From Nibricoccus sp. (GTDB lineage: Bacteria; Verrucomicrobiota; Verrucomicrobiia; Opitutales; Opitutaceae), in assembly GCA_047602425.1 (NCBI GenBank), contig JASGHG010000001.1, positions 1,950,263 through 2,014,262 on the forward strand: 64,000 bases of DNA, read 5' to 3'. Numbering within the stretch: the first letter of the stretch is position 1; each line of letters begins with the position of its first letter. Shown here one piece after another: positions 32,436-53,144 of this stretch. The position numbers were made by a program, and so were the translations under genes. The notes beneath the pieces are model-generated. The model searched no databases. It was not told the DNA's origin and worked only from the letters and a program-made list of their open reading frames with translations.

Positions 32436-32936
32436 ACCCAAGGGCGGCTGTTACCGTACTAATACAGCACCAATCCGGACCATATGAATATCACCGGTAA
32501 TCGGATGTGAACCACGTTCCCGTTAGCGAACGGTTTTCGCAATCGCAGGTATGTCCGCCAGAGCGGAACGTTCTTTTCCCGGTGCGTTCTTGCTCTCTCT
32601 GGCCACCCCTCCCACCGGACCGCCGCTGCACAGACAGGTTCGTTTTGGTCCTCCTTAAAAGGAATCCCCCAACCGCCCCCTCGTTCCGCTCGGCACCCCC
32701 GCCCTTCGAGGAGAGAGCAATCCCGCTCCTCAAAATCAAAAAGGAACATGCGCAGATCCTTTGCGGACAGTCTAGGAATTCGCCCGTGTTGTCCGTCCAG
32801 GCGGTGCACTAATCATGGAATCCGAGCGGAGTGGCAACTTTGAGTGCCTCTACTGTAATTGCGGTAGCCAACCCACCGTGAATTCGGAGGGTCCGCCCTA
32901 TCGCTGGCGGGCAGCATCCCCTTCGACAATGTGAAC

Positions 32937-33170
32937 ATGCCGATCAATACCGAACCAACCAATCAGAAATACCGCCTCGACGCCGACAAGGCCGTCATCA
33001 TCCGCACCACGCCTCCTGTCGTAATGGATGTGAAAGAGGCAAGCGCCTACTTGGTTTGCTCTCCAAGAAAATTGCGCGATCTGATCGCGAACCGTCGCGT
33101 CAAGTCTGCTCGCATAGGAGCTAAAATCGTTATCCGTCGTGAATGGCTGGATATGTTTTTGGGAGCGTGA
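32937..33170 (+). CDS. Excisionase-family / MerR-like helix-turn-helix DNA-binding protein
   Basis: VMDVKEASAYLVCSPRKLRDLIANRRVKSARIGAKIVIRREWLDMFL matches the excisionase-type HTH pattern (..eAA.yL.vS..tl..li..g.i...riG.r..i....ld.fl). Confidence 0.65.
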   Translation: MPINTEPTNQKYRLDADKAVIIRTTPPVVMDVKEASAYLVCSPRKLRDLIANRRVKSARIGAKIVIRREWLDMFLGA

Positions 33171-33423
33171 GCATTTTTGTCGATATCGTCTGGGTTTACC
33201 TGCCAGATAAAAACAGCCCAACAACACAGCACAGGCTCGCCTTAGCCCCGTCATTTTTCCTAGGTTTTGTCTAAATAAATGCTTAGGTTACCAAAATTTG
33301 GCTATTTTTTGTCACATTTTGACTAAAACGGCTCGCCTGCTTGGCTAATTTGCCTAGTATTCAGGCATGCCTTCACATGCTGTCGCACATACCGCCGCCA
33401 AGGACTCCAACCCTACAGCCAAA

Positions 33424-33726
33424 ATGCGGAAGTTCACCACATCCACACTTCGCAACAAAGTGGGGCGTGTCATCAAGTGTATCAAAAATAACGAGAGCGT
33501 GCTTTTAACTACCCATAAAAAACCGCAGGCAGTCTTGGTCCCCTACGAGGAATATGTTGCAGCCTTCGCTCCCAAACCCAAATCCGAATCGTCCGCTTTG
33601 GAATTCTTAACGACACATTACGCCGAGTTGGCTGAATCCATGAACACCCCCGCTGCGCGTGCCGGTGCCAAGGAAGCATTCGAAGCCGGACCTGATGCGT
33701 TTCGTGACCTTCGACTCACGGAATGA
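33424..33726 (+). CDS. Type II antitoxin, Phd/YefM-like
   Basis: MRKFTTSTLRNKVGRVIKCIKNNESVLLTTHKKPQAVLVPYEEY is a typical Phd/YefM N-terminal fold pattern. Its stop overlaps the start of the next gene (ATGA at 33723-33726). Confidence 0.65.
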   Translation: MRKFTTSTLRNKVGRVIKCIKNNESVLLTTHKKPQAVLVPYEEYVAAFAPKPKSESSALEFLTTHYAELAESMNTPAARAGAKEAFEAGPDAFRDLRLTE

Positions 33727-34379
33727 GCACCAAGTCGAAAGCTAGCGCCGTCCCGCCAGCCAGAATCACTGTTCTTGCCGGTGTCAATGGTTCGGGGAAG
33801 AGCAGCCTGATGGGTGCGTTGCTGCATCAAAAAGGAGTATCGTTTTTCAACCCCGATGCTTTCGCGCGGCTGCTCCGAAAAGTGGATGCCGGTCTGAGCA
33901 TAGAAGCAGCCAATGGCGAGGCATGGAACGTCGGGCGGAAGCAGCTGGAGCATGCGATTAAAAACAAAGCGAGCTACAATTTCGAGACCACCTTGGGTGC
34001 AAATACGATACCTAAGCTCCTCAAACAGGCAGCACTGGAAGGCTTGGAGGTAGTGATATGGTATTGTGGATTGGTCACTCCCGAACTCAATATCCAGCGC
34101 GTTGCACAACGCGTAACCAAAGGAGGCCACGACATCCCAGAAGACAAGATTCGCTCCAGGTGGATTTCCAGCCGTGAAAACTTGATCCACCTCTTGCCAT
34201 TTCTGACCGAGGTCAAAGTGTTCGACAACTCGGCCGAGGCGACGGCGCAATCCGATGGCGGCTTTGCCCCCGCGCCCATTCTGCTACTTCACGTTCGTGG
34301 CAAGAAAATCGTGGCCTGCTCACCTAAGCCACCGGCATGGGCCAAACCGATCATCGCGGCCGCGCGGTTAAACGCGTAG
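33723..34379 (+). CDS. Zeta-toxin-like P-loop kinase / AAA ATPase (putative toxin)
   Basis: Walker A ITVLAGVNGSGKSS near the N-terminus. About 218 aa, translationally coupled to the upstream antitoxin-like gene. Confidence 0.6.
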   Translation: MSTKSKASAVPPARITVLAGVNGSGKSSLMGALLHQKGVSFFNPDAFARLLRKVDAGLSIEAANGEAWNVGRKQLEHAIKNKASYNFETTLGANTIPKLLKQAALEGLEVVIWYCGLVTPELNIQRVAQRVTKGGHDIPEDKIRSRWISSRENLIHLLPFLTEVKVFDNSAEATAQSDGGFAPAPILLLHVRGKKIVACSPKPPAWAKPIIAAARLNA

Positions 34380-34972: not shown

Positions 34973-35470
34973 TTACGTGCCACGAACTCGATGGGGCCAG
35001 GTATCCCCGTCTGCGTCAGTCACTCGTGTCCCTATATTGACAGTGTCACCCGGATAATAAGTCACTGTTTTGTCGTAGTCGGGATCGAGGGCCATTGGAT
35101 TGTGACGCTCAGGCACATCGAGATTCGGGTCTACAATTGCCTCGAAATGACTTCCTTCCTTCGCATGGAAACCGGATTTAAGATAAATGGTGCTCGCAGA
35201 ACCGAAGTAAATGTCGGCACCACCCGGTTCGATCACTACATTTCCAGACGTACTGATGGAGCCTTCGTCGAGAATGACAATAGACGGCGGGCTGCTAGCC
35301 GTATCCTTTAACAGCAGTCCAGTTCCTGTGATCACTACACTGCCACTGCCGTTCAAAGAGACGGTGGTGTCGGCAAGCAGTGCGCTCACCGAGGCCATAA
35401 AAAATATGCAGGCAATGAGACTTCGGAGTAAGCGGCTTGATCGCAAATTCTGCCTGATCTGAAGATTCAT
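34973..35470 (-). pseudogene. Truncated duplicate of the N-terminal third of the 35529-36944 gene
   Basis: By my manual alignment, about 130 of the first 156 residues are identical to the 471-aa neighbour (MNLQI.QNL.SSR..RSLIACIF...LKxGFHAKEG.HF.AIVDPNLDVPERHNP...). Similarity ends abruptly after ...RVTD.DGD and the ORF stops 9 codons later. Confidence 0.7.
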
Positions 35471-35528
35471 GGAATTGAATGGACGGCTAAAATAGCTTGC
35501 CTTTCACCGCGAGCGTTCGATTACGACT

Positions 35529-36944
35529 TTACTGGGGGGCGATATTATAAACTCGTGGATAGGGAGGTTCGGTATGGTTCCCATCCGAAGGTTTGTGCAG
35601 ACATGTATATGTGATTTTATCCAGATACAGGCCAAAAGGCACTGTGGGGTCTAACATCCAGTACCATCCAGTACCATCCTCCCAGAGAAGGTCCACACGA
35701 TCCACGACCCACGATCTCGTTTCTCGATGGTAGATTGCTATATTTATAAATGTCTTCTCTGCATGAAATCCATATTTGTCATTATACCAGAATAATACGT
35801 AACCATTTCCTGCTTTATATTTCAGATTGTAAAAGCCAGATAAATCCGGTGATCCCCAGCTCCAAGGAACAACGCCATTATCGTTGATCTCAAAATATAT
35901 TTGGATCTGTTTATTTGTGCCAGTTCCGCCTATGGTGGCACTTGTAACCGTGGTCGGAATATTGATCCACGAAAGCACCTTGACCGTTGTCTGTGCCGAG
36001 TAAACCCAATCACTTACTGAATCTTTTACGGCCGTCCTCAGGGCATAGGTTCCAGGTAGGTAAAAATCTATACTGGCTGTATAAGTAGCGTCGCTTTGAT
36101 TTCCAGAAAGCGTCCCGGCGACAAACACCCAATCGCCGCCGGGTATTTTAACCTGGAGACCTATTGAAATCATGTCTCCATCTTGGTCCGTGGCATGGGC
36201 CGACACCTGCAAAACCTCGCCTGGATCTACAACCGAGGACTTCGGGACACTAGGTGCCGAAGGCACAGGCAGATGACTGCCAATGCTGATTGGCACTTCA
36301 TTCGAATAGATCCAGTCGCTCACTGAGTCCTTGGCGGTCGTGCGCAATAGAAATACTCCCCCAGTTGGAAACTGCACGGGAACCGTCTTCTGCGAGTCAC
36401 CACTCGAAGAGTATGACCAGTTGGCGAGAGTCACCCAATCGCCGCCTTCCTTCACTTGCAACGCATGAACGGTTATGTCTCCGTCGACATCAGTGACTCG
36501 TGTCCCTATATTGACAGTATCACCCGGATAATAAGTCACTGTTTTGTCATAGTCGGGATCGAGGACCACCGGATTGTGACGCTCAGGCACGTCCAGATTC
36601 GGGTCTACAATCGCCGTGAAATGACACCCTTCCTTCGCATGGAAACCAGGCTTGAGATAAATGGTGCTCGCAGAACCGAAGTATACATCGGCACCATCCG
36701 GTTCGATCGCTACATTTCCGGACGTACTGATCGAGCCTTCATCGAGTATGCCAATAAACGGCGGGGTGCTAGCCATATCCTTTATCATAAGCCCAGTTCC
36801 TGTGATCACTATATTGCCACTGCCATTCACGGATACAGTGGTGTCGGCAAGCAGTGCGCTCACCAAGGCCATGACAAAAATACACGCAATGAGACTTCGG
36901 ATGAAGCGGCTTGATGGCAAATTCTGCATGATTTGAAGATTCAT
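35529..36944 (-). CDS. Secreted protein: N-terminal LKPGFHAKEG-type module, two Ig-like repeats, unknown C-terminal domain
   Basis: Signal or anchor (IACIFVMALVSALLA). STIYLKPGFHAKEGCHFTAIV is a motif I recall from '3-coathanger stack'-annotated proteins. Two internal repeats (...TDVDGDITVHALQVKEGGDWV...AKDSVSDWIYS / ...TDQDGDMISIGLQVKIPGGDWV...VKDSVSDWVYS). A W/Y-rich roughly 130-aa tail follows. Confidence 0.7.
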   Translation of the reverse strand: MNLQIMQNLPSSRFIRSLIACIFVMALVSALLADTTVSVNGSGNIVITGTGLMIKDMASTPPFIGILDEGSISTSGNVAIEPDGADVYFGSASTIYLKPGFHAKEGCHFTAIVDPNLDVPERHNPVVLDPDYDKTVTYYPGDTVNIGTRVTDVDGDITVHALQVKEGGDWVTLANWSYSSSGDSQKTVPVQFPTGGVFLLRTTAKDSVSDWIYSNEVPISIGSHLPVPSAPSVPKSSVVDPGEVLQVSAHATDQDGDMISIGLQVKIPGGDWVFVAGTLSGNQSDATYTASIDFYLPGTYALRTAVKDSVSDWVYSAQTTVKVLSWINIPTTVTSATIGGTGTNKQIQIYFEINDNGVVPWSWGSPDLSGFYNLKYKAGNGYVLFWYNDKYGFHAEKTFINIAIYHRETRSWVVDRVDLLWEDGTGWYWMLDPTVPFGLYLDKITYTCLHKPSDGNHTEPPYPRVYNIAPQ

Positions 36945-37098
36945 GGTATTAAATTGAAGATAATATAGCCTGTTTGTTATCGCTAGAGCTCAATTGTGAC
37001 TACAGAGAATGCGGTTTGTCTTTCGCAGCATTATACTTGGTCAAGAGTCAAGACCTGACGTGTTTTTGCTCGTCTGTTGTGACGTGTTTTGCTCGTTT

Positions 37099-37305
37099 TT
37101 AGTCTGTTCTGATTTTCTTGATCGCCAAGGCAATACCGATCAAAAGGAATAGTGATATAAATATCACCGTTATCGCTTTGAATTGAACAGGGCTATAGCC
37201 AAACATAAGGTAGAGGACTGAACACGCGAATAATGACATCACCGCGCCGCCAATAGCACCACACAGTAGTCCGACAACGACAGTATATACTTTATTGTAA
37301 TTCAT
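37099..37305 (-). CDS. Small two-TM membrane protein, putative immunity protein for the RHS C-terminal toxin
   Basis: 68 aa with two hydrophobic helices (VVVGLLCGAIGGAVMSLFACSVLYL; ITVIFISLFLLIGIALAI). Its ATG overlaps the RHS stop codon (ATGA, 37302-37305). Confidence 0.65.
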   Translation of the reverse strand: MNYNKVYTVVVGLLCGAIGGAVMSLFACSVLYLMFGYSPVQFKAITVIFISLFLLIGIALAIKKIRTD

Positions 37306-40300
37306 TTATAATAATTATGAGCGGGTTGCGGTGCTGCACCTCCTGAGAAAAATAAATCCGTGACCGGAGATAAGTTCGCAACGACTACACCGGCCCCGGT
37401 ACCCAACTGGGTACCTAAAGTAGGCGGAGCTTTTTCACCGCGGAATAGGAGCGGCTTCCAACGCCCTTGTAAGGCCCCAGAATCGAGGAGGCCCTGCGTA
37501 AACGGACTTGGTTGCACAAATGACGCAAAGGCCCTTTCTGTGAGATCACCGGCTATAGATCCTCCAGCGCCAAACAGACCTCCTACGGTTGCAGCATACC
37601 CCAAATCTTTTTCCCAATCCGAACCACTAGCCACATTTTTCACTATTTGGCCAGTGCCGTTGATGACCGCACTACCTACACCGTTCAATACGGCACGACC
37701 GAGTATATTAGTCGTAAGCTGTGCAACCTTTCCTCCCAATCCTACGCCTGCCGCTCCAGCAAGACCACTCACTAAAACAGATGTTTTGTTCACCTTCGAC
37801 CAATCTCCATGATTACTTATCAGCTGCACTGTAAGATCTACTCCGGCGCCAATAAAAAAGCCCGCAATAGCCCAAGCAAATTTGCCTTCCGGGTCGGTCA
37901 TCATCACCGGGTTTCCGTTTGCAAACGCATACCAATTCATACCACCCGCAAAGCCAATTGGGTCGGCGTTTAGGAATCGTTGGGTATATGGGTTATAAAA
38001 CCTAGCTCGCATATAAACCAATCCACTCGACTCAGTCATCACTCCCAATGAACCGTGCAGAAGAAATGGAGTGTCAGCGCTGCCAGTTTGTGACCTCACC
38101 TGGCCGTAGGCCGCATATTCCCAACGTCCAAGTACCGAGGTGCCATTGTCGCTTGAGAGGGCGATAGTACTTCCCTGATGGTTGTAGTGGTAGGTTTTAG
38201 TGGCTCCATCTGTTTCTTCGTAAACAAGCCCGATTCCCCAAACATAGCGTGTGATCGTCCCGCCATTGTTGCGCACGAGGACCCGGCTGAGTGAAGCATT
38301 GGGGTCGACCAAGTAGTGGATCGAACCCACCCGATAGCGGTGGCCTTCGGGGTTGTAGCCGTAGCTGACATTGTTGCAGCTGCTGAGTCGATTGCGACCG
38401 TCGTAAGTATAACTGCCGAACGAGCCATCTTTTGGCAATGGACCTAGCGTCATGTTTCCATCGTCGTCGTGAATAACAGGAACGTCGTTCCACGTCTCCA
38501 ATCGGTTGTCGTTGTCGTAGGTCGCCGAGTAATAAGGCGCTGAAGTAACTCCGCCGGAGTCCGAGACCGGAGCGGTAACCGCGAGGTCAATCCGACCATC
38601 CTTGTCGTAGCGCAACACCTGTTGCCAAATCACATTCCCCAAGACATCGAGTTCCTGAACAAAGCAAAGCTGGCTTGCGGCGTCATATTGCATATTTCGC
38701 TTTGTTCCATTGGGCCGATACACCTGTTTGAGCCTGCCTCCTGCATCGTAAGCGTAAGATGTAACCCGCCCGTTCCAGTCACTGACCGATGCCATGCGGT
38801 TGTAGGCATCATATCCATAGGTTACCACCTTGTTGCCTGGGTAGGTGATCGTCTCCAGATTGCCAGCAGCATCATAAGTGTACTGAAGCGTGTTACCATC
38901 TCCATCCCGGTACAATTTCAACCGATTGAAATCGTCGTATTCTCGATGGGTGGTCATGCCGCCCTCCGATACTTCATGCAACATGCCGTTGGGATAATAG
39001 CTGAATGTCGTCTCAATACCCAAACCGTCTTTTTGCTTCAGTAGGCGGCCTTCGGCATCGTACTCTTTGAATTCGGTGACTCGCAGCGAAGGAGCAGTGA
39101 CCGTCTTTAACAAGCCACGCGTATCTTTTTCAACAATCGTACTTTTCTGCTCAGGAGTCTTGGTCGTCACCTTTCGCGCGACATCGTCGTAGGTCCAAGT
39201 ATAAGTCTGCTCCCGCCGGTTCTTGAGCGTTTTTGGACGCCCATCCTTGTCATAGCCATGGATGATCGAAAAGCCCATCGCGTCACCAGTAGAGTCAACT
39301 AAGCCCAAGCTATTGTAGACGCTATCAGTTTCGTGCCCCAGCGCCGTCTTCATGTAGTTACGCTGGCCGTTTGCATCGTAATCGAAATAGGTGTGTCGGA
39401 CGAGTGGATCGATCGTTTCTTTGAGCCGTGACGCGTCGTCATATTTAAACTGCGTATCGTTGCCAAAAGCATCGATAGTGAAGCCCAAGAGATTCCGTTC
39501 GTCGTAATGCTGCGATTTTACTACCTGGCCATCCGCTCCCTTCACCTCAATAAGGTTGCCCAAAGCATCATAGTCATAATCGACTTTATTATTGCGAGGA
39601 TCCAAGATGTAATCAACAGCACCAGCATCATCATATGTCGTCGTGGAAACAATAGAATCGCTCGGCGGAGTTCCTCCCACTGGTGAAGTCGCATCGTAAA
39701 GGCCGGACCATTGAACAGTTTTGGTTTTTTGCCGGCGTTTGTTATATTCGAAGGTCGTTTTCCGTCCACCGCGATCGATGAACTGTATAACATCACCCCG
39801 CGCATTCAGGTCGGTGATCTCGGTTGGGGCGGTCGTATCGGTCGGGGCGGTCGGGTAGGTGGCAGTTACTCGTTTTGTGTAACCCGCGACATCAGTATAC
39901 ACATAGCTAATGACTTCCCCTGCGGCGAATGCTGTCGGGTGTACCGTCAACACACGCCCACGCGAATCGTAAGTATATGAAGTGGTAAAGCCTCCAGTCG
40001 CTGTCACGTTCTTCACTTTGTGATACCCGTAGTATTCCGTAGTCGTTTGATTTCCTTCAAACGAGTTTTCCACACGCGAAGTTGAACTGTCGTCGTTCTC
40101 CGGAGTGATCGTTCGCGAGTTGCCGTCAGGATTGGTAACCTGGTTAACCTCGTGATGGGCGTCATAGGCCATTGTCGTCTCTTCACCTTTGGGCGACCGT
40201 GTATACTCTACCCGGTCGTTTCCGTCGTAGCCCCATCGCGAAACATTGCCGAGTTGGTCTCGGTAGGCGATCTTCCGACCACGCTCATCGAAATACGTCC

Positions 40301-43268
40301 ACGCTATCTTCCCAAGAGGATCTGTTTCGCGAGTCATTCCGCCTGCAAAGCCATAGGTCCAAAGATGCGAGTCCAGCCCCAGGCTTCGTTGTTCTAAAAT
40401 ACGATCCGAAGTATCATAGACATTCGTCACCACGGTACGGCCTCGTGCATCGCTAATCTGCGTCATCAGTCCACGCGAATTAATAGTATACGTAGTTTCC
40501 TTACCCTCGGCATCCTTGAATACAAAATTTCCTTGATTTACGGTGTATTGAACCTCCCGGTCTGTGTTATCGGTGACTGTCTTTAGTCGACCAGATTCAT
40601 AGCCAAAATCGAAATAGCGGCCGAAGCTGTCGGTCACGCGCGTTAGAAGGCCGTTAGCATAAGTAGCGCTCAGTTTTCTTTCGGTTCCCGTGCTATTATT
40701 CTTATCAATAATGTCGGTGAACATTTTGTTCGCATCGAACTTAACCGTGGCTCCCTTTCTAAACTCCATGGTATAGGTCCCGTCGGCAGCCTGTGTAAGC
40801 GTCGCATTGACTCCCGCCGGGGGGGCATAGGTGGTGGTGGTAGCAGTGGAAAGCTTCGGCATTCTCGTAAACTCATAATTCCGAGTTCCAAAAGAAACAG
40901 AGGTCCTAGAATTTACCAGCTGGTCACCGGCCCAATTGGCGATGAGCGCAGGTACCAGCCAATGTTTTGGTGAACCATCCAAGTCGACGACATCCAACAG
41001 GGCGCGGGCAGCAACTACAAATGGCGCAACCTCTGCAGCCGTCGCACGTCGTAAATCGAAATCATTAGGATGCCGCTCTGAAAGTTGAATCGCATAACTG
41101 TGTGTCCAGCCTTTGCCCATTTTCGCCGGATCAGCCAATCGGCGTGCCGACGAATACTGGCGAACCAAAGCAAGCCCATGCGGAGACTCTCCGCCAAGCG
41201 TTAGGTCTGTGTCCTCCTTGTAAAACGCGCCGTTAGTAGTATCGACCGGATCCCATGATAGCGAGAGGGGAAGTGCAGAGGGTGTGTTTGTACCAAAAGT
41301 CGAACTCGCAAAGTAATCCTGATCGAAGGGTGTGACATTCAATTGATTTGGCATAGTCGCATAACCGCCAGCAAGCCCCCCCGTAATACCCATTAAACAG
41401 GTAGCGGCTCCTGAGGCATCTTCGGAGTAAAGCAAATAGCCTGTGCCTTTATACTCGTTTGACCATATTAGGCACTGATTCGGGATCGCTAAGCGTGCTA
41501 CCGGTTTCTCCATCTCGCTTTGAATTGCTGCGATTTCTGTTGCATCGAGTGTAGTGTAATTACCAATTAATGGCTTAATTAATTGGTAGTGGCTGTTGCT
41601 ATTGGCATAATATACATTATGATTATTAGATGAATCGATCCATTCAATCGCCCGTTGCATAAGCTTAACCGTTGATACGGCGGTATCAGGCACAGTCTGC
41701 TCAAGTGTAACATGCTCTAGCGCACTACCCAGATAGTTTCCGGCTAAAAATATCTTTTTACGATCAACCGCATTAACAGATCTGGGCGCAATGTTATCCA
41801 ATCTGAGCGGCAAATCCACATAAGGTGCCATCGAGGGGGTTGTCTTTATTCCGACTATACCAGCAAAACAATCGCACAGTTTTCTGCTACCACCCACAGA
41901 TCCCAGGATTTCATCCAGTAAATTCATCTGATTGAGATACTGCAGTCCAATGATATTAAGGTTCTCGGTTAACAATTTCCTCCCCTGTGGCAACTCCTGG
42001 CTGGTCACATATTCCGATTGTATTTGCAGGCGTTTCGCCAAACGACCAAGGCATTGGTCGAAACCGTACGCAATAACAGAACATCCCGCACGATCCAGTG
42101 CCTTGGCATTTTGTGTAATGGTGTAGGGAATATCCGGGAAAGTGTAGCTAAAGGTAACAGCCGCAACTACGGCCGCATCGACTTCTTCAACCAACATGGT
42201 GTCATCAAGCCAGAGCTGAGCTTTGCCTGAACTAAAATATACCGCCAATTTTTTACCCTGAAGTTCGGCCGTATAAAATGTCTTTTGCAGACTCCCTACT
42301 GTAACCGAAAATGTCATTGCATAATCAGTCGGTATCCCGGCCCACGACACTGCCGGAAATGCCACTGTATCTTCAAACATAACAGAAGGCAATTCCTCCG
42401 GTAGCGCTGTGAAAAATTCTGATTTTAATATAGCTTTGCCACAAATGTCAGCTCCAGATTCATCGTGAACCGTCGTCTGACAATATTGGATAAGACTGGT
42501 AGAGTATGACGACAGTTTATCTCGAAGAGCCGTCAGTCCACTTTGAGTCAGTTTAACCGAAAGCGTCTGATCAGAACCAGCCGCCGCATCATACACCGCA
42601 GCATTGCTGTAGGATATAGCCGAATCCAAGGAAATGGCTGGATTCCGCGAATGTCGCTTGAAGGATGGATCCAAGACGTAGTTTTTTCCAGCTATAGATG
42701 CAATTACCCATACATGGGGTACTCGAATGAAGTCCCGATCATATATGAGCGGGCTATCAAAATAATCGACGCGGCACTGCAACAACTGATCTCCAGCCAA
42801 GCTTGCATCGGACCCCAACCAATCAGCTACATCATTAGGGTCCATAACAACACCCCCAAATTTATAGGATGCATCGGCGCCACTTGCCTTCAATAAGGCC
42901 ACAAGCAAGGCACAGGTATCAAAATCGTTGCCAACTTTTTCCACCAAGGTCAGCTGCGCACCCCGCTTAAGTCCGTGGTAAGGGACGAACTCGATTGTAT
43001 TTTTCACCCACTCATAAATTCTGACAGGGTCGTTATTCAATGCGCTCGCAAGCGCCGTGATCTCCGGAGTAATTTCGTCAGCAACCGGGAGCAGCTGAGT
43101 CACCATATCTCTCGCCGCGACAACCCCCGCAGGTCTGGCCTGAAGCGCAGCGGCAAAACTTCTATTGCGCGCAGTAGCCTCCACAGGCTTAAACGTCCAA
43201 CCAGTTTGGGAGTGAAGCCTAGTGACTGCTAGAAGCAGCATGAGCGCTGATAAAGTGATCTTTTTCAT
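37302..43268 (-). CDS. RHS/YD-repeat toxin (1988 aa) with Sec signal peptide, N-terminal transglutaminase-like domain, RHS core and a glycine-rich C-terminal toxin
   Basis: MKKITLSALMLLLAVTRLHSQ signal. IYEWVKNTIEFVPYHGLKRG...GNDFDTCALLVALLKASG is a transglutaminase-like Cys core. There are dozens of YD repeats (e.g. YTYDSRGRVLTV, FEYNKRRQKT, YDYDALGNLIEV, YGYDAYNRMASV). The RHS-associated core reads YHYNHQGSTIAL...YMRARFYNPYTQRFLNADPIGFAGGMNWYAFANGNPVMMTDPEGK. A 192-aa G/A/V-rich tail follows. Confidence 0.9.
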   Translation of the reverse strand: MKKITLSALMLLLAVTRLHSQTGWTFKPVEATARNRSFAAALQARPAGVVAARDMVTQLLPVADEITPEITALASALNNDPVRIYEWVKNTIEFVPYHGLKRGAQLTLVEKVGNDFDTCALLVALLKASGADASYKFGGVVMDPNDVADWLGSDASLAGDQLLQCRVDYFDSPLIYDRDFIRVPHVWVIASIAGKNYVLDPSFKRHSRNPAISLDSAISYSNAAVYDAAAGSDQTLSVKLTQSGLTALRDKLSSYSTSLIQYCQTTVHDESGADICGKAILKSEFFTALPEELPSVMFEDTVAFPAVSWAGIPTDYAMTFSVTVGSLQKTFYTAELQGKKLAVYFSSGKAQLWLDDTMLVEEVDAAVVAAVTFSYTFPDIPYTITQNAKALDRAGCSVIAYGFDQCLGRLAKRLQIQSEYVTSQELPQGRKLLTENLNIIGLQYLNQMNLLDEILGSVGGSRKLCDCFAGIVGIKTTPSMAPYVDLPLRLDNIAPRSVNAVDRKKIFLAGNYLGSALEHVTLEQTVPDTAVSTVKLMQRAIEWIDSSNNHNVYYANSNSHYQLIKPLIGNYTTLDATEIAAIQSEMEKPVARLAIPNQCLIWSNEYKGTGYLLYSEDASGAATCLMGITGGLAGGYATMPNQLNVTPFDQDYFASSTFGTNTPSALPLSLSWDPVDTTNGAFYKEDTDLTLGGESPHGLALVRQYSSARRLADPAKMGKGWTHSYAIQLSERHPNDFDLRRATAAEVAPFVVAARALLDVVDLDGSPKHWLVPALIANWAGDQLVNSRTSVSFGTRNYEFTRMPKLSTATTTTYAPPAGVNATLTQAADGTYTMEFRKGATVKFDANKMFTDIIDKNNSTGTERKLSATYANGLLTRVTDSFGRYFDFGYESGRLKTVTDNTDREVQYTVNQGNFVFKDAEGKETTYTINSRGLMTQISDARGRTVVTNVYDTSDRILEQRSLGLDSHLWTYGFAGGMTRETDPLGKIAWTYFDERGRKIAYRDQLGNVSRWGYDGNDRVEYTRSPKGEETTMAYDAHHEVNQVTNPDGNSRTITPENDDSSTSRVENSFEGNQTTTEYYGYHKVKNVTATGGFTTSYTYDSRGRVLTVHPTAFAAGEVISYVYTDVAGYTKRVTATYPTAPTDTTAPTEITDLNARGDVIQFIDRGGRKTTFEYNKRRQKTKTVQWSGLYDATSPVGGTPPSDSIVSTTTYDDAGAVDYILDPRNNKVDYDYDALGNLIEVKGADGQVVKSQHYDERNLLGFTIDAFGNDTQFKYDDASRLKETIDPLVRHTYFDYDANGQRNYMKTALGHETDSVYNSLGLVDSTGDAMGFSIIHGYDKDGRPKTLKNRREQTYTWTYDDVARKVTTKTPEQKSTIVEKDTRGLLKTVTAPSLRVTEFKEYDAEGRLLKQKDGLGIETTFSYYPNGMLHEVSEGGMTTHREYDDFNRLKLYRDGDGNTLQYTYDAAGNLETITYPGNKVVTYGYDAYNRMASVSDWNGRVTSYAYDAGGRLKQVYRPNGTKRNMQYDAASQLCFVQELDVLGNVIWQQVLRYDKDGRIDLAVTAPVSDSGGVTSAPYYSATYDNDNRLETWNDVPVIHDDDGNMTLGPLPKDGSFGSYTYDGRNRLSSCNNVSYGYNPEGHRYRVGSIHYLVDPNASLSRVLVRNNGGTITRYVWGIGLVYEETDGATKTYHYNHQGSTIALSSDNGTSVLGRWEYAAYGQVRSQTGSADTPFLLHGSLGVMTESSGLVYMRARFYNPYTQRFLNADPIGFAGGMNWYAFANGNPVMMTDPEGKFAWAIAGFFIGAGVDLTVQLISNHGDWSKVNKTSVLVSGLAGAAGVGLGGKVAQLTTNILGRAVLNGVGSAVINGTGQIVKNVASGSDWEKDLGYAATVGGLFGAGGSIAGDLTERAFASFVQPSPFTQGLLDSGALQGRWKPLLFRGEKAPPTLGTQLGTGAGVVVANLSPVTDLFFSGGAAPQPAHNYYK

Positions 43269-43287
43269 GACTTAAATATAGTAAAAT

Positions 43288-44094
43288 TTACTGAGGTCCT
43301 TCCACGTTCCCTTCCTTGTCATATTTATGCGTTCGCGTGGGATCAGCTGTGAGACGATTATTTGCGTCATACTGATAACGGGCGGTGGCTGCTGGGTTGG
43401 GCGTGCTAGCCGCATTGTACGGACTGGAACCACTCGCAATCTCGACATAGTCGGGGTAGCCATCGTTATCGAAATCGATCGATGCAGCTGGAGACTCGAT
43501 CGTGAATCTCTTTCGCACCGTAGGGGTAGAGGCCCCTGAACGATCAGTGACTATAACAACCACAAAATGCAGTCCCGTACCCAGTTCGATGGGACAACAC
43601 GTGTAGCTAAAGCCTGCTCCGAGGTATCGGCTTGATGGCCCCGGGTATCCCAATGAGTTTACGGAATAGTCAGCAATATCCGGTCGGGCGAGTCCTACCG
43701 AAGGCCTTCCGACAAATATACCGTCGATGTATATTTTTATCGAATCGACCGGTGTCCCATCATCCCGGTCGACTGCCCACCCGCCTATATTCAAAATCCC
43801 CCCCTGCAGGTAAGCCGTTTCCAACGATGCAAGGGGCGGAGAGTTCACAATCGCATGGAAATAACTTCCTTCCCTGGCTTGAAAGCCGGCCTTTAAGACA
43901 ATCTGAGACGATGCAGAATACGTTACATTGGCACCGCTTTCAACAGTCACATTTGGGCCAGCCTCAATCGTCGATGGTCCTGAGACGGTCGTTGAGACCC
44001 CTGAAGAATACGTAACATCCTGTATGATTGTTTGGGCTCTGAGTCCCAACGCGGTCAACAACCAAAATAAAAGCAACAATGGAATTCGTTTCAT
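43288..44094 (-). CDS. Secreted accessory protein: LKAGFQAREG-type module, Ig-like domain, DNDG calcium-binding-like motif, C-terminal YD repeat
   Basis: Signal peptide MKRIPLLLLFWLLTALGLRAQ. SSQIVLKAGFQAREGSYFHAIV, IDFDNDGYPDYVE, and a terminal YQYDANNRLTADPTRTHKYDKEGNV. Its stop lies 19 nt upstream of the RHS start. Confidence 0.7.
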   Translation of the reverse strand: MKRIPLLLLFWLLTALGLRAQTIIQDVTYSSGVSTTVSGPSTIEAGPNVTVESGANVTYSASSQIVLKAGFQAREGSYFHAIVNSPPLASLETAYLQGGILNIGGWAVDRDDGTPVDSIKIYIDGIFVGRPSVGLARPDIADYSVNSLGYPGPSSRYLGAGFSYTCCPIELGTGLHFVVVIVTDRSGASTPTVRKRFTIESPAASIDFDNDGYPDYVEIASGSSPYNAASTPNPAATARYQYDANNRLTADPTRTHKYDKEGNVEGPQ

Positions 44095-44149
44095 ATTTTG
44101 AAAGGGCCAAGGCAGGTTAGTAATAGGTTTCTAATAATTTTTAATTCAG

Positions 44150-45062
44150 CTAGTTACTGCTCTTGAGCCGTGTGATTTCCGTTTGTTGAGCAGCTATTTG
44201 AAAAGCTTGGGCTTCGATTTTAGATTTCTGTTCGTTAAGCTGTTTCTGCTGGTTGATGACGTGCAAAGTCAGCTCTTCAACTTTAGCCAAGAGGATCGGC
44301 CTGCATATCGCCGATGGAGACGCCGTTGGCAGCAACCTCCGTCGCCGAGGGCACGCCGGGCAAATGGCCTTGCTGCTCGATATGCCGCTCCACCTCGGCA
44401 AGCGGTGCTAACTTGTAGTCTTTGGCAAAAACGCAGTCCGACCAGTTGGTGGTTTCAACAACCACTTCTCTCGCGCGAATCCTTCCATTGACCGAAAGCT
44501 TTTCATTCGGGCTCGTCGTTCCGATACCGACATTTCCACCAACTGCTATATGTAATCTTGAAGTTTTCGCTGAATTAAAATCCTCAACGATATCGAAGGA
44601 GTTAGAGTTCCTAGCTACGGAACCACAAGTTAGCCCCCAACTATTGCCATAGGCATTCAATGAAAGCACTGCTTCAGCCAGCACACTTTGGCTATCGTTG
44701 CGTACCGCCGCTACAACTGCACTATCTACCGTCTTCCACAGATGCAGATCATAAATTGGTCCTACAGACCCAATGCCAATGTTGCCGTTATTATCAATCC
44801 GAAGACGGACCATTCCCGCTACATCATCATAGAATTGAAATCCTCCAGGAGTACCCACGCTTGGACCAAGTCGAAAACTGTGACCCAAAGAGTCCTGCAA
44901 TTGCAGAGGGTCCGTCGCAGTATTACCGACTAGCGTCAGTCTTGCTGCAGGATTGCTAGTACCAATACCGACATTGCCTGATTCAGGCCAAGGATAAGTA
45001 TTTTGAGAGTAACCAGCAGCTGAGGTCATGAGAAACGTAACAAAAGCGGCGATCTTTTTCAT
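44150..45062 (-). pseudogene. Tail-fibre-like secreted protein, paralogue 1 of 9 (frameshifted in the conserved C-terminal module)
   Basis: ORF 44283-45062 ends ...GVSIGDMQADPLG*. The expected continuation ILLAKVEELTLHVINQQKQL...coiled coil is in ORF 44150-44401 in another frame. An extra C sits in GCAGGCCGATCC (about 44298-44301), where intact paralogues read GCAGGCGATCC. Confidence 0.8.
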
Positions 45063-45076
45063 GGGGGTAATAAAAG

Positions 45077-46285
45077 CTATAATGTTTTATTCAGTTTTGT
45101 GTTTTCTGTTTTAAGAGCGGCAATTTCGGCTTGTTGGTCATTGAGACGCTTCTCTTGCTGGATCTGGCGGAGCGTCAGTTCTTCAATCTTGGCGAGGAGG
45201 ATTGCTTGCATATCACCGACGGAGACGCCTTTGGCGGCGACTTCCTGCGCGGAGGGGACTCCGGGGAGGTGCCCTTGTCGTTCGATGTGTTGCTCGACTT
45301 CGCTGAGCGGTGCCAGCTTGTATTCCTTAGCGAAAACGTAGTCTGACCAATTCGTCGTCTCCACGATCACTTCCCTCGCCCGAATCCTGCCATTGACCGA
45401 AAGCTTCTCATTCGGGCTTGTCGTACCTATGCCGACGTTGCCATCGCCACGTATCACCATCTTTGAGTTTGCTGGAGCCGATCCCTTGAGTCGGAAATCG
45501 ATAAATGTATTGTCACTATTATAAGTGTTAGCTATAAAAACCTTGTTAGCGGTTGGATCCTCACCAAGCCGACCCATGTAGTACGTTTGTGATCCGAACG
45601 CAATGACCTCTCCATCGGTGTCATCCCATCGCCTTACGTCCAAAATGGCGCTAGGACTTGCGGTGGCTATACCGATTTTCCCACCGCTCCCTGTAACAAA
45701 CATAGCGTCATTAAGGTTAAGGATCTTGTATAGGGATTGCGTTCGATCATATGAGATCAGTCTCCCTCGATCGGCCGATGTTTGATATGTGAGCTCAACA
45801 CCTCTACCAACCGAAGGCAGTCCGACCTCATCCGTAACAGACACTGCACCTGCAATATCTAGCTTAGATCTCGGGGTAATCGTACCCACTCCGACGTCAC
45901 CTGAGCCGCCCAATACAGTGATCCCTCCTCCGTATAAGTCGCCACTACTTAAGGGACCACCAAGAAAAACACGATCGTTAACCGCTCGCAATACGCCGAT
46001 CCAATCCGAACCCGCCTGATTTGGGGCTAATATCCCACTGTTACCGACAAGGATTTGCCCAGCGCCTGTGAAATTGCCACCCGGGACAAGCGCTGGATCG
46101 ACATTCAGCGCAAGCGACCGTGCTGGCTGATTCACGCCTAGACGCAATGCCTTGTAGTACGAGCTATACCCAAAGTTTGTTTCCTGAATGGGAATCTGAT
46201 CGGGTCCTACGTAAACCGTCTGCGCGAGAACAGACGCAACTGCAGCAACTGCAAACAGGACTAGGATGCTAAGATTTTTTTTCAT
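45077..46285 (-). CDS. Tail-fibre-like secreted protein, paralogue 2 of 9
   Basis: Signal peptide and a divergent N-terminus. Internal GDVGVGTITPRSKLDI / GKIGIATASPSAILDV. Conserved C-module GNVGIGTTSPNEKLSVNGRIRAREVIVETTNWSDYVFAKEYKLAPLSEVEQHIERQGHLPGVPSAQEV...MQAILLAKIEELTL plus a coiled coil. Confidence 0.85.
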   Translation of the reverse strand: MKKNLSILVLFAVAAVASVLAQTVYVGPDQIPIQETNFGYSSYYKALRLGVNQPARSLALNVDPALVPGGNFTGAGQILVGNSGILAPNQAGSDWIGVLRAVNDRVFLGGPLSSGDLYGGGITVLGGSGDVGVGTITPRSKLDIAGAVSVTDEVGLPSVGRGVELTYQTSADRGRLISYDRTQSLYKILNLNDAMFVTGSGGKIGIATASPSAILDVRRWDDTDGEVIAFGSQTYYMGRLGEDPTANKVFIANTYNSDNTFIDFRLKGSAPANSKMVIRGDGNVGIGTTSPNEKLSVNGRIRAREVIVETTNWSDYVFAKEYKLAPLSEVEQHIERQGHLPGVPSAQEVAAKGVSVGDMQAILLAKIEELTLRQIQQEKRLNDQQAEIAALKTENTKLNKTL

Positions 46286-47277
46286 TTTTGGCCTTCTTTC
46301 TCAATTAGCTTTTGCTGAAGCCGGACATTTTCCGATTCGAGAGTTTGAACTCGTTTTTCCTGTGCAATTACGTGCAGCGTTAATTCTTCAATTTTCCCCA
46401 AGAGGATGGCTTGCATGTTGCCGACAGAGACGCCGTTGGCAGCAACCTCCTTCGCCGACGGCACGCCTGGCAAATGACCTTGCTGCTCGATATGCTGCTC
46501 CACCTCGGAAAGCGGTGCTAACTTGTAGTCCTTGGCAAAAACGCAGTCCGACCAGTTGGTGGTTTCAACAACCACTTCCTTCGCCCGAATTTTGCCATTG
46601 ACCGAGAGCTTTTCGGTCGGGCTCGTCGTGCCGATGCCGACGTTGCCGGAAGCTGCCAAATATACCCTCTCGGTCCCGTCGGTAACTGGATTTCCACCCA
46701 AGGCATTGGACTGCATAAAAGCGAGATCACCGTAGGAGGTTCTGCCTTGCACGAGCGCCCAATTTCTCGAATTTGATTGTGTATAATCATTCAAAAACGC
46801 GATCCCACTTCCGCCTATACCTGACAAACCAGTATCATGAAATGCGGTAATAATATTCTGAGATACCTTTGCCACTTCCAACGCATAACCCGGCGCTGAA
46901 GTTCCGATGCCAACATTATTGTTGGCTTTTAGCACAATGTATCCACCCGCAGGATTATTTCGATTAAATAGGAATATATCCTCACCTGTCGTACTTCCAT
47001 TAAAGATCCCGATTGCTCCACTACTGAAACCAACATTATAGACATTTCCGCTTTGTCCTGCATAAAAATTACCGTGGTTGAAGCCCCAGTACCCCTGAGG
47101 CGCTTTCGCGATAAAGCTGATTAGCCCATTGGCTGTAATCGTACCATTTACTTCGAGAGCTGAAGTCGGGTTCATTGTACCAATACCGACACTTCCGGAC
47201 GCCGGCCAGGGAGTATTTTGTGCATAGCTGCTGACCGCGCCGATGAATGACGACAAGACTATCGATAGAATTTTCAT
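46282..47277 (-). CDS. Tail-fibre-like secreted protein, paralogue 3 of 9
   Basis: Signal peptide, YAQNTPWPASGSVGIGTMNP, and the conserved C-module. Its stop overlaps the start of paralogue 2 by 4 nt. Confidence 0.85.
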   Translation of the reverse strand: MKILSIVLSSFIGAVSSYAQNTPWPASGSVGIGTMNPTSALEVNGTITANGLISFIAKAPQGYWGFNHGNFYAGQSGNVYNVGFSSGAIGIFNGSTTGEDIFLFNRNNPAGGYIVLKANNNVGIGTSAPGYALEVAKVSQNIITAFHDTGLSGIGGSGIAFLNDYTQSNSRNWALVQGRTSYGDLAFMQSNALGGNPVTDGTERVYLAASGNVGIGTTSPTEKLSVNGKIRAKEVVVETTNWSDCVFAKDYKLAPLSEVEQHIEQQGHLPGVPSAKEVAANGVSVGNMQAILLGKIEELTLHVIAQEKRVQTLESENVRLQQKLIEKEGQK

Positions 47278-47342
47278 GATGAAGAACTCGACAAGTAACG
47301 TGCGAATAATCGGGATCCAGAAACGAAAGAATTATGACTTTG

Positions 47343-48581
47343 CTAGGGATGGGTGGATTTTAGATGGGCAATCTCGGCTTGTTGGGCGGCAATTTGCGTC
47401 TGTTGCGTATTTAGCTGCTTCTGCTGGCGGATCACGTGCAGTGTGAGCTCTTCGATTTTCGCGAGGAGGATAGCTTGCATATCGCCAATGGAGACACCGT
47501 TGGCTGCAACCTCCTTCGCTGAGGGCACGCCGGGCAAATGACCTTGCTGTTCGATGTGCTGTTCCACCTCGGAAAGCGGTGCTAACTTGTAGTCCTTGCC
47601 AAAAATATGGTCCGACCAGTTGGTGGTTTCAACAACCACTTCTCTTGCACGAACTCGGCCGTTGACCGAAAGTTTCTCGCTCGGATTCGTCGTACCGATA
47701 CCGACGTTGCCCAAAGGATCAATGGTAGCGGCATCTAGGTTGCTATTACCGTCCGAAACACGGAACGTTATTCTCCCCTTAGTGCCGCCGGCATAAACAG
47801 AGCCGAAGTATGCGTTATCGCCACCCTCGCCGGATGCTCCCCCTCCATACGAAACAAATGCGTAGCAGTTTGAAGAATTCGGTCTTGAAACTCGCAACCC
47901 GTCAGAAAGCAATCCGGCACTATTTAAATTCTGAACATGAAGTTTTGCTTCCGGGCTGGCGGGGCCAACGGCGAGGCTGCCCGTAGTCACGATATTTGTA
48001 TTCGTTGAAGTTATGAGATTTCCAGCAATAATGTGTGCCTGCCCTCCAGCTGGAGTTTCCTCAACATTATGTATAGTAATGGCGCCTTTGCTATCTATTA
48101 CACGCCACGCTACAGTCGGTGCATATTCCGACGCTCGGATTCTAATATATACCGTACGCGGCCCGCCGGTGCTACCAACCACGCGGACTTCCCGAAGATG
48201 CTCATTGTAAGTTTGTCGCTCTACACTAAAACCCACGCGGTCATTAAAGTAGGTTCCAAAAACCTTCACTTCGGCAATTTCTTCGCTCGCATTCGAACCA
48301 CTGCGAATTTGAAACCTAACGTAGTGGTTGTTAGGAATTGTCGCTAATTTGATCCATCTTTCATCACCAATCCCGAGGGATATACTTTGCAGCGAGGAGA
48401 AATATAGTTCTCCGATTCTAAATGATCCTCCTACATGAGTGTCACCACTCACATCGAGGGTAAAATTAGGATTAGTCGTGCCAATTCCAACGTTCCCGGA
48501 CGCGGGCCAAGGATACGTGTTTTGAGCATAAGTGCTGCCTGCAAAAACAAGCCCAAATATAAATGAGATGAAATATTTCAT
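47343..48581 (-). CDS. Tail-fibre-like secreted protein, paralogue 4 of 9
   Basis: Signal peptide, YAQNTYPWPASGNVGIGTTNP, a unique core, and the conserved C-module plus coiled coil. Confidence 0.85.
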   Translation of the reverse strand: MKYFISFIFGLVFAGSTYAQNTYPWPASGNVGIGTTNPNFTLDVSGDTHVGGSFRIGELYFSSLQSISLGIGDERWIKLATIPNNHYVRFQIRSGSNASEEIAEVKVFGTYFNDRVGFSVERQTYNEHLREVRVVGSTGGPRTVYIRIRASEYAPTVAWRVIDSKGAITIHNVEETPAGGQAHIIAGNLITSTNTNIVTTGSLAVGPASPEAKLHVQNLNSAGLLSDGLRVSRPNSSNCYAFVSYGGGASGEGGDNAYFGSVYAGGTKGRITFRVSDGNSNLDAATIDPLGNVGIGTTNPSEKLSVNGRVRAREVVVETTNWSDHIFGKDYKLAPLSEVEQHIEQQGHLPGVPSAKEVAANGVSIGDMQAILLAKIEELTLHVIRQQKQLNTQQTQIAAQQAEIAHLKSTHP

Positions 48582-48598
48582 TGATTCTGAATTTACGA

Positions 48599-49804: not shown

Positions 49805-49849
49805 ATGGATGTTTTAACCACTGATATTCATTGATGAACACTGATATAG

Positions 49850-50791: not shown

Positions 50792-50840
50792 CGGGGCATT
50801 TTCAACCACTGATTTTCACTAACGACCATGGATATAGGTT

Positions 50841-51896: not shown

Positions 51897-51909
51897 CGAA
51901 TCATACTTG

Positions 51910-53115: not shown

Positions 53116-53144
53116 TATTTTATGAAGTTAAATCTAGAATAGAC

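Follow-up and report, generated by a model that had tools for sequence, protein, structure and literature searches.

How an RHS-caged toxin leaves a bacterium with two membranes, and how it is then presented to its targets, is the question raised by a gene that begins with a Sec-type signal peptide and has no recognised secretion genes beside it. The gene is a single uninterrupted open reading frame (ORF) of 1988 aa at 37302..43268 on the minus strand of the window, by which we mean the whole stretch of 64,000 nucleotides analysed here, and its source is a metagenome-assembled genome (MAG) of an uncultured Nibricoccus sp. (Opitutaceae, Verrucomicrobiota). The NCBI record of the identical protein is MFT3868476.1, 'RHS repeat-associated core domain-containing protein [Nibricoccus sp.]', encoded on a 5.16-Mb contig. 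Its domains run in the order signal peptide, N-terminal module of ~590 aa, DUF6531 plug, YD-repeat shell, RHS core and C-terminal domain of 192 aa, and judged by reading frame and domain content this is a real, intact RHS caged-toxin gene. The protein is probably a polymorphic RHS toxin of a class that joins a signal peptide, an inactive transglutaminase and RHS repeats, delivered by a proposed mechanism of Sec export followed by a type II secretion system (T2SS).

The cage is the best-defined part of the protein. An earlier note on this DNA had described a 1988-aa RHS protein with a YD-repeat shell and a core ending in a variant of the DPxGL motif, and both descriptions hold. The shell or cocoon (residues 742-1717, 38118..41045, minus strand) matches PF05593 (RHS_repeat) at 1.2e-50 over 13 stretches and also TIGR01643 in searches of Pfam and NCBIfam, with YD_repeat_2x and RHS_core among the families recognised. 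The span from plug to core is ~1,120 aa, and the YD array is long enough for a cocoon. By phmmer the shell matches the solved Rhs cages 8h8a, 7q97, 8qja, Tse5 and Tse15, and, within shell residues ~860-1125 and no further, the teneurin-like 9pt5 and 9ifo, while similarity to TcdB2-TccC3 and YenC2 is confined to a core of ~120 aa at the RHS end. Ahead of the shell lie the DUF6531 N-terminal plug (residues 673-741, 41046..41252, minus strand; Pfam PF20148, 2.2e-10) and a linker of low predicted local distance difference test score (pLDDT) without a transmembrane segment (residues 638-672, 41253..41357, minus strand). The plug starts D-PVDTTNG-A, with Ala where the PVxxxxGE N-terminal autocleavage motif of type VI secretion system (T6SS) Rhs proteins has Glu. 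Plug motifs of that group read PVYVASGE and PVSMVTGE (PMC8636562), and the Glu is the nucleophile of their N-terminal cleavage (PMC11461821).

At the other end of the cage, the RHS-associated core (TIGR03696, i.e. Rhs_assc_core, 1.3e-19; residues 1718-1795 matched, 37881..38117, minus strand) contains Arg1756, Asp1769 and Asp1792. The core end NGNPVMMTDPEGK aligns residue for residue with NNPLRLTDPDGM of YenC2, and over a longer stretch, YNPYTQRFLNADPIGFAGGMNWYAFANGNPVMMTDPEGK, the core end corresponds in every column to YenC2 residues 652-690. In this alignment Asp1769 and Asp1792 fall on two YenC2 Asp residues; Arg1756 was placed by hand, two residues before an aligned Tyr. We take the two YenC2 aspartates to be the catalysts of C-terminal autoproteolysis in BC and Rhs cages; their residue numbers and catalytic role were reportedly set out by Busby et al. 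in 2013. Set against the motif PxxxxDPxG[LM], the final residue is Lys, not Leu or Met, and cleavage of the RHS core is predicted after ...TDPEGK1796.

The N-terminus looks like that of a Sec substrate. Residues 1-20 (43209..43268, minus strand) read as a Sec-type signal peptide, MKKITLSALMLLLAVTRLHS↓QTGW, whose n/h/c layout was judged by eye and whose [A/S]↓Q ending is common to the neighbouring secreted ORFs, in keeping with the signal peptide that the earlier note had called. In P0001 and L079, the closest relatives, a signal peptide likewise stands directly before the module. As an observation in its own right, most predicted secreted proteins of the 34973-54197 block have endings of this kind (LHS↓Q, LRA↓Q, GYS↓Q, VLA↓Q and SYA↓Q), as do the signal peptides of P0001 and L079, and such endings in [A/S] then Gln are reminiscent of the Bacteroidetes 'Q-rule' for signal peptidase I substrates.

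Behind the signal peptide the earlier note had seen a transglutaminase-like core followed by roughly 600 aa that it could not assign. The two are parts of one conserved module (residues 45-637, 41358..43136, minus strand), because matches to a profile of a large family run through both from end to end. A word-indexed homologue search returned four matches, namely one partial Verrucomicrobiota protein (39% identity) and three proteins of ~950 aa annotated 'transglutaminase-like putative cysteine protease', which align with the query from residue ~45 through the terminal GTGY...GAGAYLISGGLAGG motif. The profile built from this alignment was run against 1.84 billion cluster representatives and matched 9,162 at E<=1e-3 and 3,120 at E<=1e-30. 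The Nibricoccus protein matches positions 3-627 of its 628, and nearly all of the top 150 matches span positions ~5-627. The module comprises the inactive transglutaminase-like core, a beta-sandwich, a helical hairpin, a long beta-hairpin and an alpha/beta domain with the terminal motif GTGYLLYS...GGLAGG, and its AlphaFold2 (AF2) model from 72 sequences has a pLDDT of 78 and a predicted template modelling score (pTM) of 0.83. Only the first ~150 residues of the model are matched by Foldseek, to the transglutaminase-like cysteine proteases 3isr, 3kd4, TglA (9crn) and PeiP (8z4f), with probabilities of 0.96-1.0 and weak E-values of 0.016-0.25; a Foldseek search of BFVD agrees, matching the transglutaminase core alone. 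Modelled separately, the remaining ~430 aa reach a pLDDT of 72, and the 427 aa outside the transglutaminase have no Foldseek match above noise against the PDB. Rows for MHC/CD1 and Hsp70-SBD were set aside as noise (probability <=0.06, TM-score ~0.1). A sequence search of the N-terminal 673 aa against the PDB found nothing, and within residues 1-693 Transglut_core is the sole Pfam match even at E<=10, with NCBIfam finding no N-terminal family.

Most relatives of the module are not RHS proteins. A typical member is ~1000 aa long and consists of a signal peptide or transmembrane segment, a coiled-coil head of ~230 aa, the module and a tail of ~145 aa, which has at least one predicted transmembrane segment in 138 of 155 members. 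A genome scan found 524 relatives in GTDB species genomes, and the family occurs in Geobacter, Nitrospirota, Alcanivorax, Undibacterium, Acidobacteriota, Thiomargarita and a few Bacillota. Over its whole length the module of these stand-alone proteins (e.g. P0003-P0005) is homologous to that of the Nibricoccus protein, with 23-27% identity and with GNxFDT, HVW and GxGY...GGLxGG invariant. However, typical stand-alone members have a coiled-coil head, a tail rich in transmembrane segments and an adjacent partner gene encoding an alpha-alpha toroid with CARDB, and the Nibricoccus locus lacks all three.

The transglutaminase-like core itself (residues ~66-205, 42654..43073, minus strand) is recognised by Pfam PF01841 and Foldseek, the Pfam match being borderline (residues 66-144, 22-23 bits against a gathering cutoff of 23). 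In the canonical fold a Cys is followed twelve residues on by the conserved Arg/Lys of LLR..GIPAR; this Cys is that of G-Q-C-W-V-F in FXIII/TG2 and of G-x-C-x-D-F-A in bacterial examples. The corresponding motif here is G113-N-D115-F-D117-T-C119-A-L-L-V-A-L-L-K, and His185 and Asp200 are retained. With the register anchored on the canonical D(F/T)A...LL(R/K)..G motif, the nucleophile position is Asp115, because the shared Asp two residues downstream fixes that register. Across 154 relatives this column holds Ala in 107, Asp in 34, Ser in 9 and Cys in none, while His185 is conserved in 150, Trp187 in all 154 and Asp200 in 151. C119, the Cys of GNDFDTC that the earlier note had picked out, lies four residues past this position and is unique to the query, 125 of the 154 relatives having Ala there. 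The fold that the note proposed is supported by AF2 and Foldseek; C119 as nucleophile is not, nor is the active cysteine protease that the note implied, and judged by its active-site residues the domain is inactive. Separately, in ~24% of the family a Cys stands two residues ahead of the canonical one (QCN[DA]xDT). The query lacks it, and in the P0005-P0154 alignment this Cys may be either a nucleophile that has migrated or a residue with a structural role.

An architecture of this kind has been described before. From genome comparison, Zhang et al. 2012 (Biol Direct 7:18; PMC3482391) defined a class with a signal peptide or transmembrane segment, an inactive transglutaminase and RHS repeats, in which at least one residue of the catalytic triad is lost. 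They proposed a surface-anchor role for it; their Table 1 places 'Inactive transglutaminase' under the T2SS/Sec-dependent route, and the Ntox10 row joins RHS, transglutaminase, T2SS and Verrucomicrobia (PMC3482391). The Nibricoccus protein and this class alike have a signal peptide, a transglutaminase fold minus a catalytic residue, RHS repeats and a variable C-terminal domain; in the query the core lies just after the signal peptide, its nucleophile is lost and the RHS array follows downstream. They differ in that the paper covers the transglutaminase domain only, whereas here that domain makes up the opening ~150 aa in a module of ~590 aa, and in that the query C-terminal domain is not Ntox10 or another named Ntox. 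As the earlier note had it, the N-terminus carries no known adaptor, and none was found; its novelty does not stand. The reading of this N-terminus as a new kind finds no support, since the class dates from 2012 and was then placed by inference on the Sec/T2SS route. That assignment is computational, and a full-text literature search found no experimental work on the inactive-transglutaminase RHS class. The 'inactive transglutaminase' of a Shewanella vesicle paper was considered and rejected as a precedent, being a different family fused to seven transmembrane segments, with a separate Rhs gene.

The same coupling of module and cage recurs in seven other proteins, at loci L002 (a Logan assembly of a sequencing run), L034, L061 and L067 (Acidobacteria), L043 (Sulfuricellaceae), L052 (Burkholderiaceae) and L079 (a metagenome). 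Their C-terminal domains are mutually unrelated, and a SUFU/SUKH-type immunity gene follows the L002 fusion. Such a constant carrier with exchanged C-terminal domains is, at the level of domain architecture, the pattern of polymorphic toxins. The streamlined layout of the query is shared by the 1994-aa protein L079:1835-7819 (metagenome Ga0182021_10010938), which has signal peptide, module and RHS without the coiled-coil head, with a module 28% identical and a different C-terminal domain. A hydropathy scan finds no transmembrane segment between module and plug in five of the seven other fusions, and in the four whose plug starts were read by eye (L079, L002, L034 and L061) the motif Glu is absent, as in the query. 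The module would stay covalently joined to the cage, because the motif Glu is missing and no transmembrane segment lies between the two.

The putative toxin itself is the C-terminal domain of residues 1797-1988 (37305..37880, minus strand), characterised by composition, hydropathy and GC content at third codon positions (GC3), which drops from 0.55 in the shell to 0.39 in this domain. Gly makes up 17% of it and Ala 12%, and it holds four small-xxx-small stretches besides segments of moderate hydrophobicity. It has no Pfam or NCBIfam match and no homologue at E<=1e-3 in a word-indexed protein search, and on its sequence it is neither Ntox10 nor a member of any other named Ntox family. The Gly-rich Tse15 toxin shows a weak compositional similarity to it (E=0.003, 19 bits); a common function was rejected, because the match comes from the core motif that both have and from their richness in Gly. 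Directly downstream, at 37099..37305 on the minus strand, lies a 68-aa ORF with two predicted transmembrane helices, whose ATG overlaps the TGA of the RHS gene (ATGA). Its GC content of 0.41 is the lowest of the locus, and it matches no Pfam or NCBIfam family above threshold. This ORF is likely the immunity gene, since a small membrane ORF coupled in this manner fits the usual toxin-immunity arrangement, and it suggests a toxin that targets membranes. A scan for YD and DPxG motifs found no further orphan rhs C-terminal/immunity cassettes in the window, the sole extra hit being a relic at 43377.

Several characterised systems resemble the locus in part. WapA of Bacillus subtilis and related Sec-dependent RHS toxins of Gram-positive bacteria, cited in PMC7259588 and PMC12704120, combine a Sec signal peptide, an N-terminal anchor, a YD cage, a polymorphic toxin and a downstream immunity gene, and act by contact-dependent inhibition without a dedicated injection system. 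However, WapA is anchored by cell-wall-binding repeats in a monoderm, whereas the query comes from a diderm with an outer membrane to cross or associate with, and the two N-terminal modules are unrelated. The T6SS Rhs effectors (RhsA, Rhs1/Tre23, Tse5, Tse15 and RhsP) share with the query the DUF6531 plug, the YD cocoon and C-terminal aspartyl autoproteolysis, the last in the query as residues only, and the toxins of Tse5 and Tse15 are Gly-rich as well. Unlike them, the query has a Sec signal peptide and lacks a PAAR, prePAAR or clade domain, a vgrG or eag neighbour and the cleavage-motif Glu. Likeness to the Tc BC component is limited to the core, and no TcA- or TcB-type family occurs in the protein or the window.

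Among experimental work, the proposed route has its nearest precedent in Bcn-A of Xanthomonas perforans, an RHS-family bacteriocin whose activity is found in culture supernatant and is abolished by mutation of the T2SS secretin xpsD (PMC7259588). Bcn-A is likewise a Gram-negative RHS toxin unlinked to T6SS, with a membrane-localised immunity protein downstream; it differs in its length of 1,398 aa and its need for three accessory ORFs (PMC7259588). Its N-terminus is described there as a plug and beta-propeller by homology modelling, and not as a transglutaminase module (PMC7259588). Bacterial teneurin-like proteins (TLPs; 2026, PMC13018210) are Sec-dependent caged toxins with 'no obvious delivery machinery', whose delivery 'remains to be elucidated'. 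BiTLP and its relatives (PMC13018210; PDB 9pt5/9ifo) resemble the query in their Sec-targeted YD shell, and TLPs enclose a polymorphic toxin. They carry variable N-terminal adhesion or anchoring modules and at least one membrane-disrupting C-terminal domain (PMC13018210). However, TLPs are defined by an FN-plug, NHL and YD-shell, usually with TIP, whereas in the query neither NHL nor TIP was detected and the plug is DUF6531 by Pfam. Verrucomicrobiota is also outside the six phyla reported for TLPs (PMC13018210).

Our results suggest a model in which Sec would take the protein across the inner membrane and the signal peptide would be cut at LHS↓Q. By homology, the DUF6531 plug and YD repeats form a closed cocoon that encloses the C-terminal domain of 192 aa, and an aspartyl autoprotease of Arg1756, Asp1769 and Asp1792 would cut after ...DPEGK1796, freeing the toxin inside the cage. 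The ~590-aa module would stay on the cage and probably act as an envelope or cell-surface tether, or as an adhesion platform that presents the cage, much as Zhang et al. 2012 proposed; this role would be non-catalytic, because Asp replaces the transglutaminase nucleophile. Crossing of the outer membrane would fall to a system encoded elsewhere in the genome, most likely a T2SS by analogy with Bcn-A. Given its Gly/Ala-rich and moderately hydrophobic composition, the payload would most likely attack the target membrane, with the translationally coupled 68-aa protein and its two transmembrane helices as the candidate cognate immunity factor. The toxin/immunity end may have been acquired by C-terminal displacement, consistent with its differing codon composition.

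A number of points weigh against Sec export followed by T2SS. The protein, at ~215 kDa with a folded cocoon, would be a large T2SS substrate, and the secretion-gene evidence covers the window, where no T2SS was seen. The signal peptide looks like one by eye, the anchor role of the module is a proposal, and module function may differ in the query context, because the head, the transmembrane tail and the toroid/CARDB partner are absent. 'Inactive' may not describe the whole family, because 24% of its members carry a Cys two residues upstream. The toxin domain is an orphan whose most likely membrane-targeting activity is read from composition; its likeness to Tse15 is weak, and the Tse15 toxin is itself without an assigned activity. 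Were the protein exported by Sec and then kept in the producer's envelope, it might reach targets through lysis, outer-membrane vesicles or type X secretion system (T10SS)-like holin/endolysin release, as Tc toxins do. We hold this to be unlikely while keeping it in view: the membrane-rich tails of the family suggest a membrane-anchored extracytoplasmic module, no outer-membrane translocation component occurs among the window ORFs scanned, and Sec-dependent caged toxins lacking obvious delivery machinery are on record (PMC13018210). The query, however, has neither a transmembrane tail nor a lipobox and nothing obvious to hold it, the window showed no genes for a holin or endolysin, and Bcn-A demonstrates that an extracellular RHS toxin can depend on T2SS (PMC7259588).

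Delivery as cargo by a T6SS, or by some other system of contractile or specialised type with its genes elsewhere, would recast the signal peptide as a hydrophobic helix and the module as a novel adaptor. Most characterised Gram-negative Rhs toxins are T6SS substrates, all solved bacterial Rhs cages matched by phmmer are T6SS-associated or Tc, and the scan for secretion genes spans the window. We nevertheless give T6SS delivery only a slight chance. Among the ORFs scanned, the window held no gene of a T6SS, type VII secretion system (T7SS), Tc or T2SS and no PAAR or VgrG, as the earlier note had reported for all but the T2SS, and neither the protein nor these ORFs contain a prePAAR, a VgrG-binding clade domain, an Eag chaperone or a vgrG. 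The PVxxxxGE motif lacks its Glu, module relatives carry a signal peptide or transmembrane head and a transmembrane tail, and the module also occurs in Bacillota (Pelotomaculum, Clostridiaceae), which lack T6SS. It is improbable, too, that the protein serves mainly in cell-cell adhesion or recognition through a teneurin-like YD shell, with a non-toxic or structural C-terminal domain and an unrelated 68-aa ORF. The autoproteolysis residues are intact, the ATGA-coupled membrane ORF and the compositional break at the junction of core and C-terminal domain are hallmarks of toxin-immunity pairs, and other module fusions bear different C-terminal domains, one with a SUFU/SUKH-type gene behind it; these stand against the orphan domain's lack of enzymatic motifs and homologues, the partial shell matches to 9pt5 and 9ifo, and the resemblance of the N-terminal module to a binding platform. 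Very improbable, finally, is an active transglutaminase or cysteine protease whose task would be toxin processing or cross-linking of the toxin to the envelope. Conserved His185 and Asp200, the position of C119 near the active-site helix and the shifted Cys of some relatives might speak for it, but the canonical position holds Asp here and never Cys in the relatives, C119 has no counterpart among them, and Zhang et al. reached the same conclusion for the class (PMC3482391).

Beyond the query, the module gene has a conserved neighbour. A frequent neighbour encodes a protein of ~1260 aa (up to ~2900 aa) with an alpha-alpha toroid of prenyltransferase/squalene-cyclase type, CARDB and fn3. By clustering, this gene adjoins the module gene in 53 of 78 loci, and a BLAST search with one member finds it in 57 loci; examples lie in loci L003-L078 (e.g. 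L074:15457-18993, L043:585-9215 and L052:2099-9133), and four of six RHS-fusion loci have it. A hidden Markov model (HMM) search of the six-frame ORFs found no such partner in the window. As a side observation, the conserved pair of module and toroid/CARDB genes is one for which we found no description. Payloads other than RHS also follow the module, including a HEIGH metallopeptidase-like tail and PKD-like regions (P0047, P0050 and P0102). In an acidobacterial subclade a small Cys-rich secreted protein of the Ntox16 family is encoded upstream of the stand-alone module gene (L001:7659-8060; also L018, L044, L048 and L075), and some of these contigs also carry a DUF6714 gene and an extracytoplasmic function (ECF) sigma factor. 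The stand-alone module is thereby tied to toxin genes, because the Ntox16 gene precedes it. Ntox16 as a general neighbour of the family was rejected, as it occurs in five loci only, at least four of them of Acidobacteriota type.

It is conceivable that the module is the signature of a widespread Sec-dependent envelope system which presents or hands over payloads. Its usual form would pair the module, anchored by its transmembrane tail, with the giant alpha-toroid/CARDB protein, and its payloads would be RHS cages, the metallopeptidase-like tail and adjacent Ntox16 toxins. The query would then be a streamlined, partner-less version independent of T6SS, T7SS and Tc, a proposal that we regard as speculative and rather unlikely.

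The wider problem is the way in which caged toxins of the RHS and teneurin-like kinds, once exported by Sec, get out of a diderm producer and into a target. To this the locus adds a clean, intact example of the class from Verrucomicrobiota, and it makes plain that the 'inactive transglutaminase' of 2012 is only the head of a ~590-aa module, one that defines thousands of membrane proteins with a conserved toroid/CARDB neighbour. By itself the gene, from an uncultured MAG and with an orphan toxin domain, overturns nothing. Cultured Geobacter, Alcanivorax and Undibacterium carry the family and offer more genes usable for testing the anchoring hypothesis.

The earlier note had named the flanking secreted proteins and a neighbouring fibre array as candidate partners of the cage. 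The array is a tandem of nine to ten paralogous secreted fibre-like proteins (259-412 aa) at 44283-54197 on the minus strand, with phage tail-fibre-like repeats. These proteins have GN(V/I)GIGT repeats, a highly conserved C-module of ~110 aa (EKLSVNGRIRAREVVVETxNWSDYVF...HLPGVPSA...MQAILLAKIEELTL) and then a coiled coil, and match tail-fibre families in PHROG and no Pfam or NCBIfam family. An HMM of the C-module found 0 matches in 84 loci with module relatives, including the seven module-RHS fusions, and in the fibre copy that adjoins the RHS cassette (44283-45062) the C-module is cut short by truncation. Because of this absence and of the truncated abutting copy, the arrangement suggests juxtaposition of the fibre array and the RHS cassette, not partnership, and the proposal of partners is not supported.

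Three flanking secreted ORFs carry a 3-coathanger stack domain. One of them, a 268-aa ORF at 43288..44094 on the minus strand (NF045639, 42 bits), lies 20 nt upstream of the RHS start codon. Its last part is a single YD repeat, the motif at 43377 being the only one outside the RHS gene. The ORF is probably what is left of the N-terminal part of another, displaced RHS gene, and is possibly co-transcribed with the present one. A scan for promoters and terminators gave counts equal to shuffle expectation. The other genes of the window include carbohydrate utilisation genes, TonB-dependent receptors, LacI regulators, a Phd/Zeta pair, an HTH_17 gene and a hybrid histidine kinase. At 32931-34379 on the plus strand, an excisionase-like HTH_17 ORF is followed by the pair of Phd/YefM antitoxin and Zeta-toxin/AAA_33 at the edge of a block of lower GC content (~0.49 against 0.55-0.58 at the window ends), and this region may be the boundary of a mobile element. 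A tRNA-flanked island was rejected, as there is no tRNA in the window. The other two coathanger ORFs, at 34973-35470 and 35529-36944 on the minus strand, are paralogues with an N-terminal hydrophobic segment and have a 300-nt repeat in common, 89% identical between them; the copy of 165 aa is a truncated duplicate of that of 471 aa.

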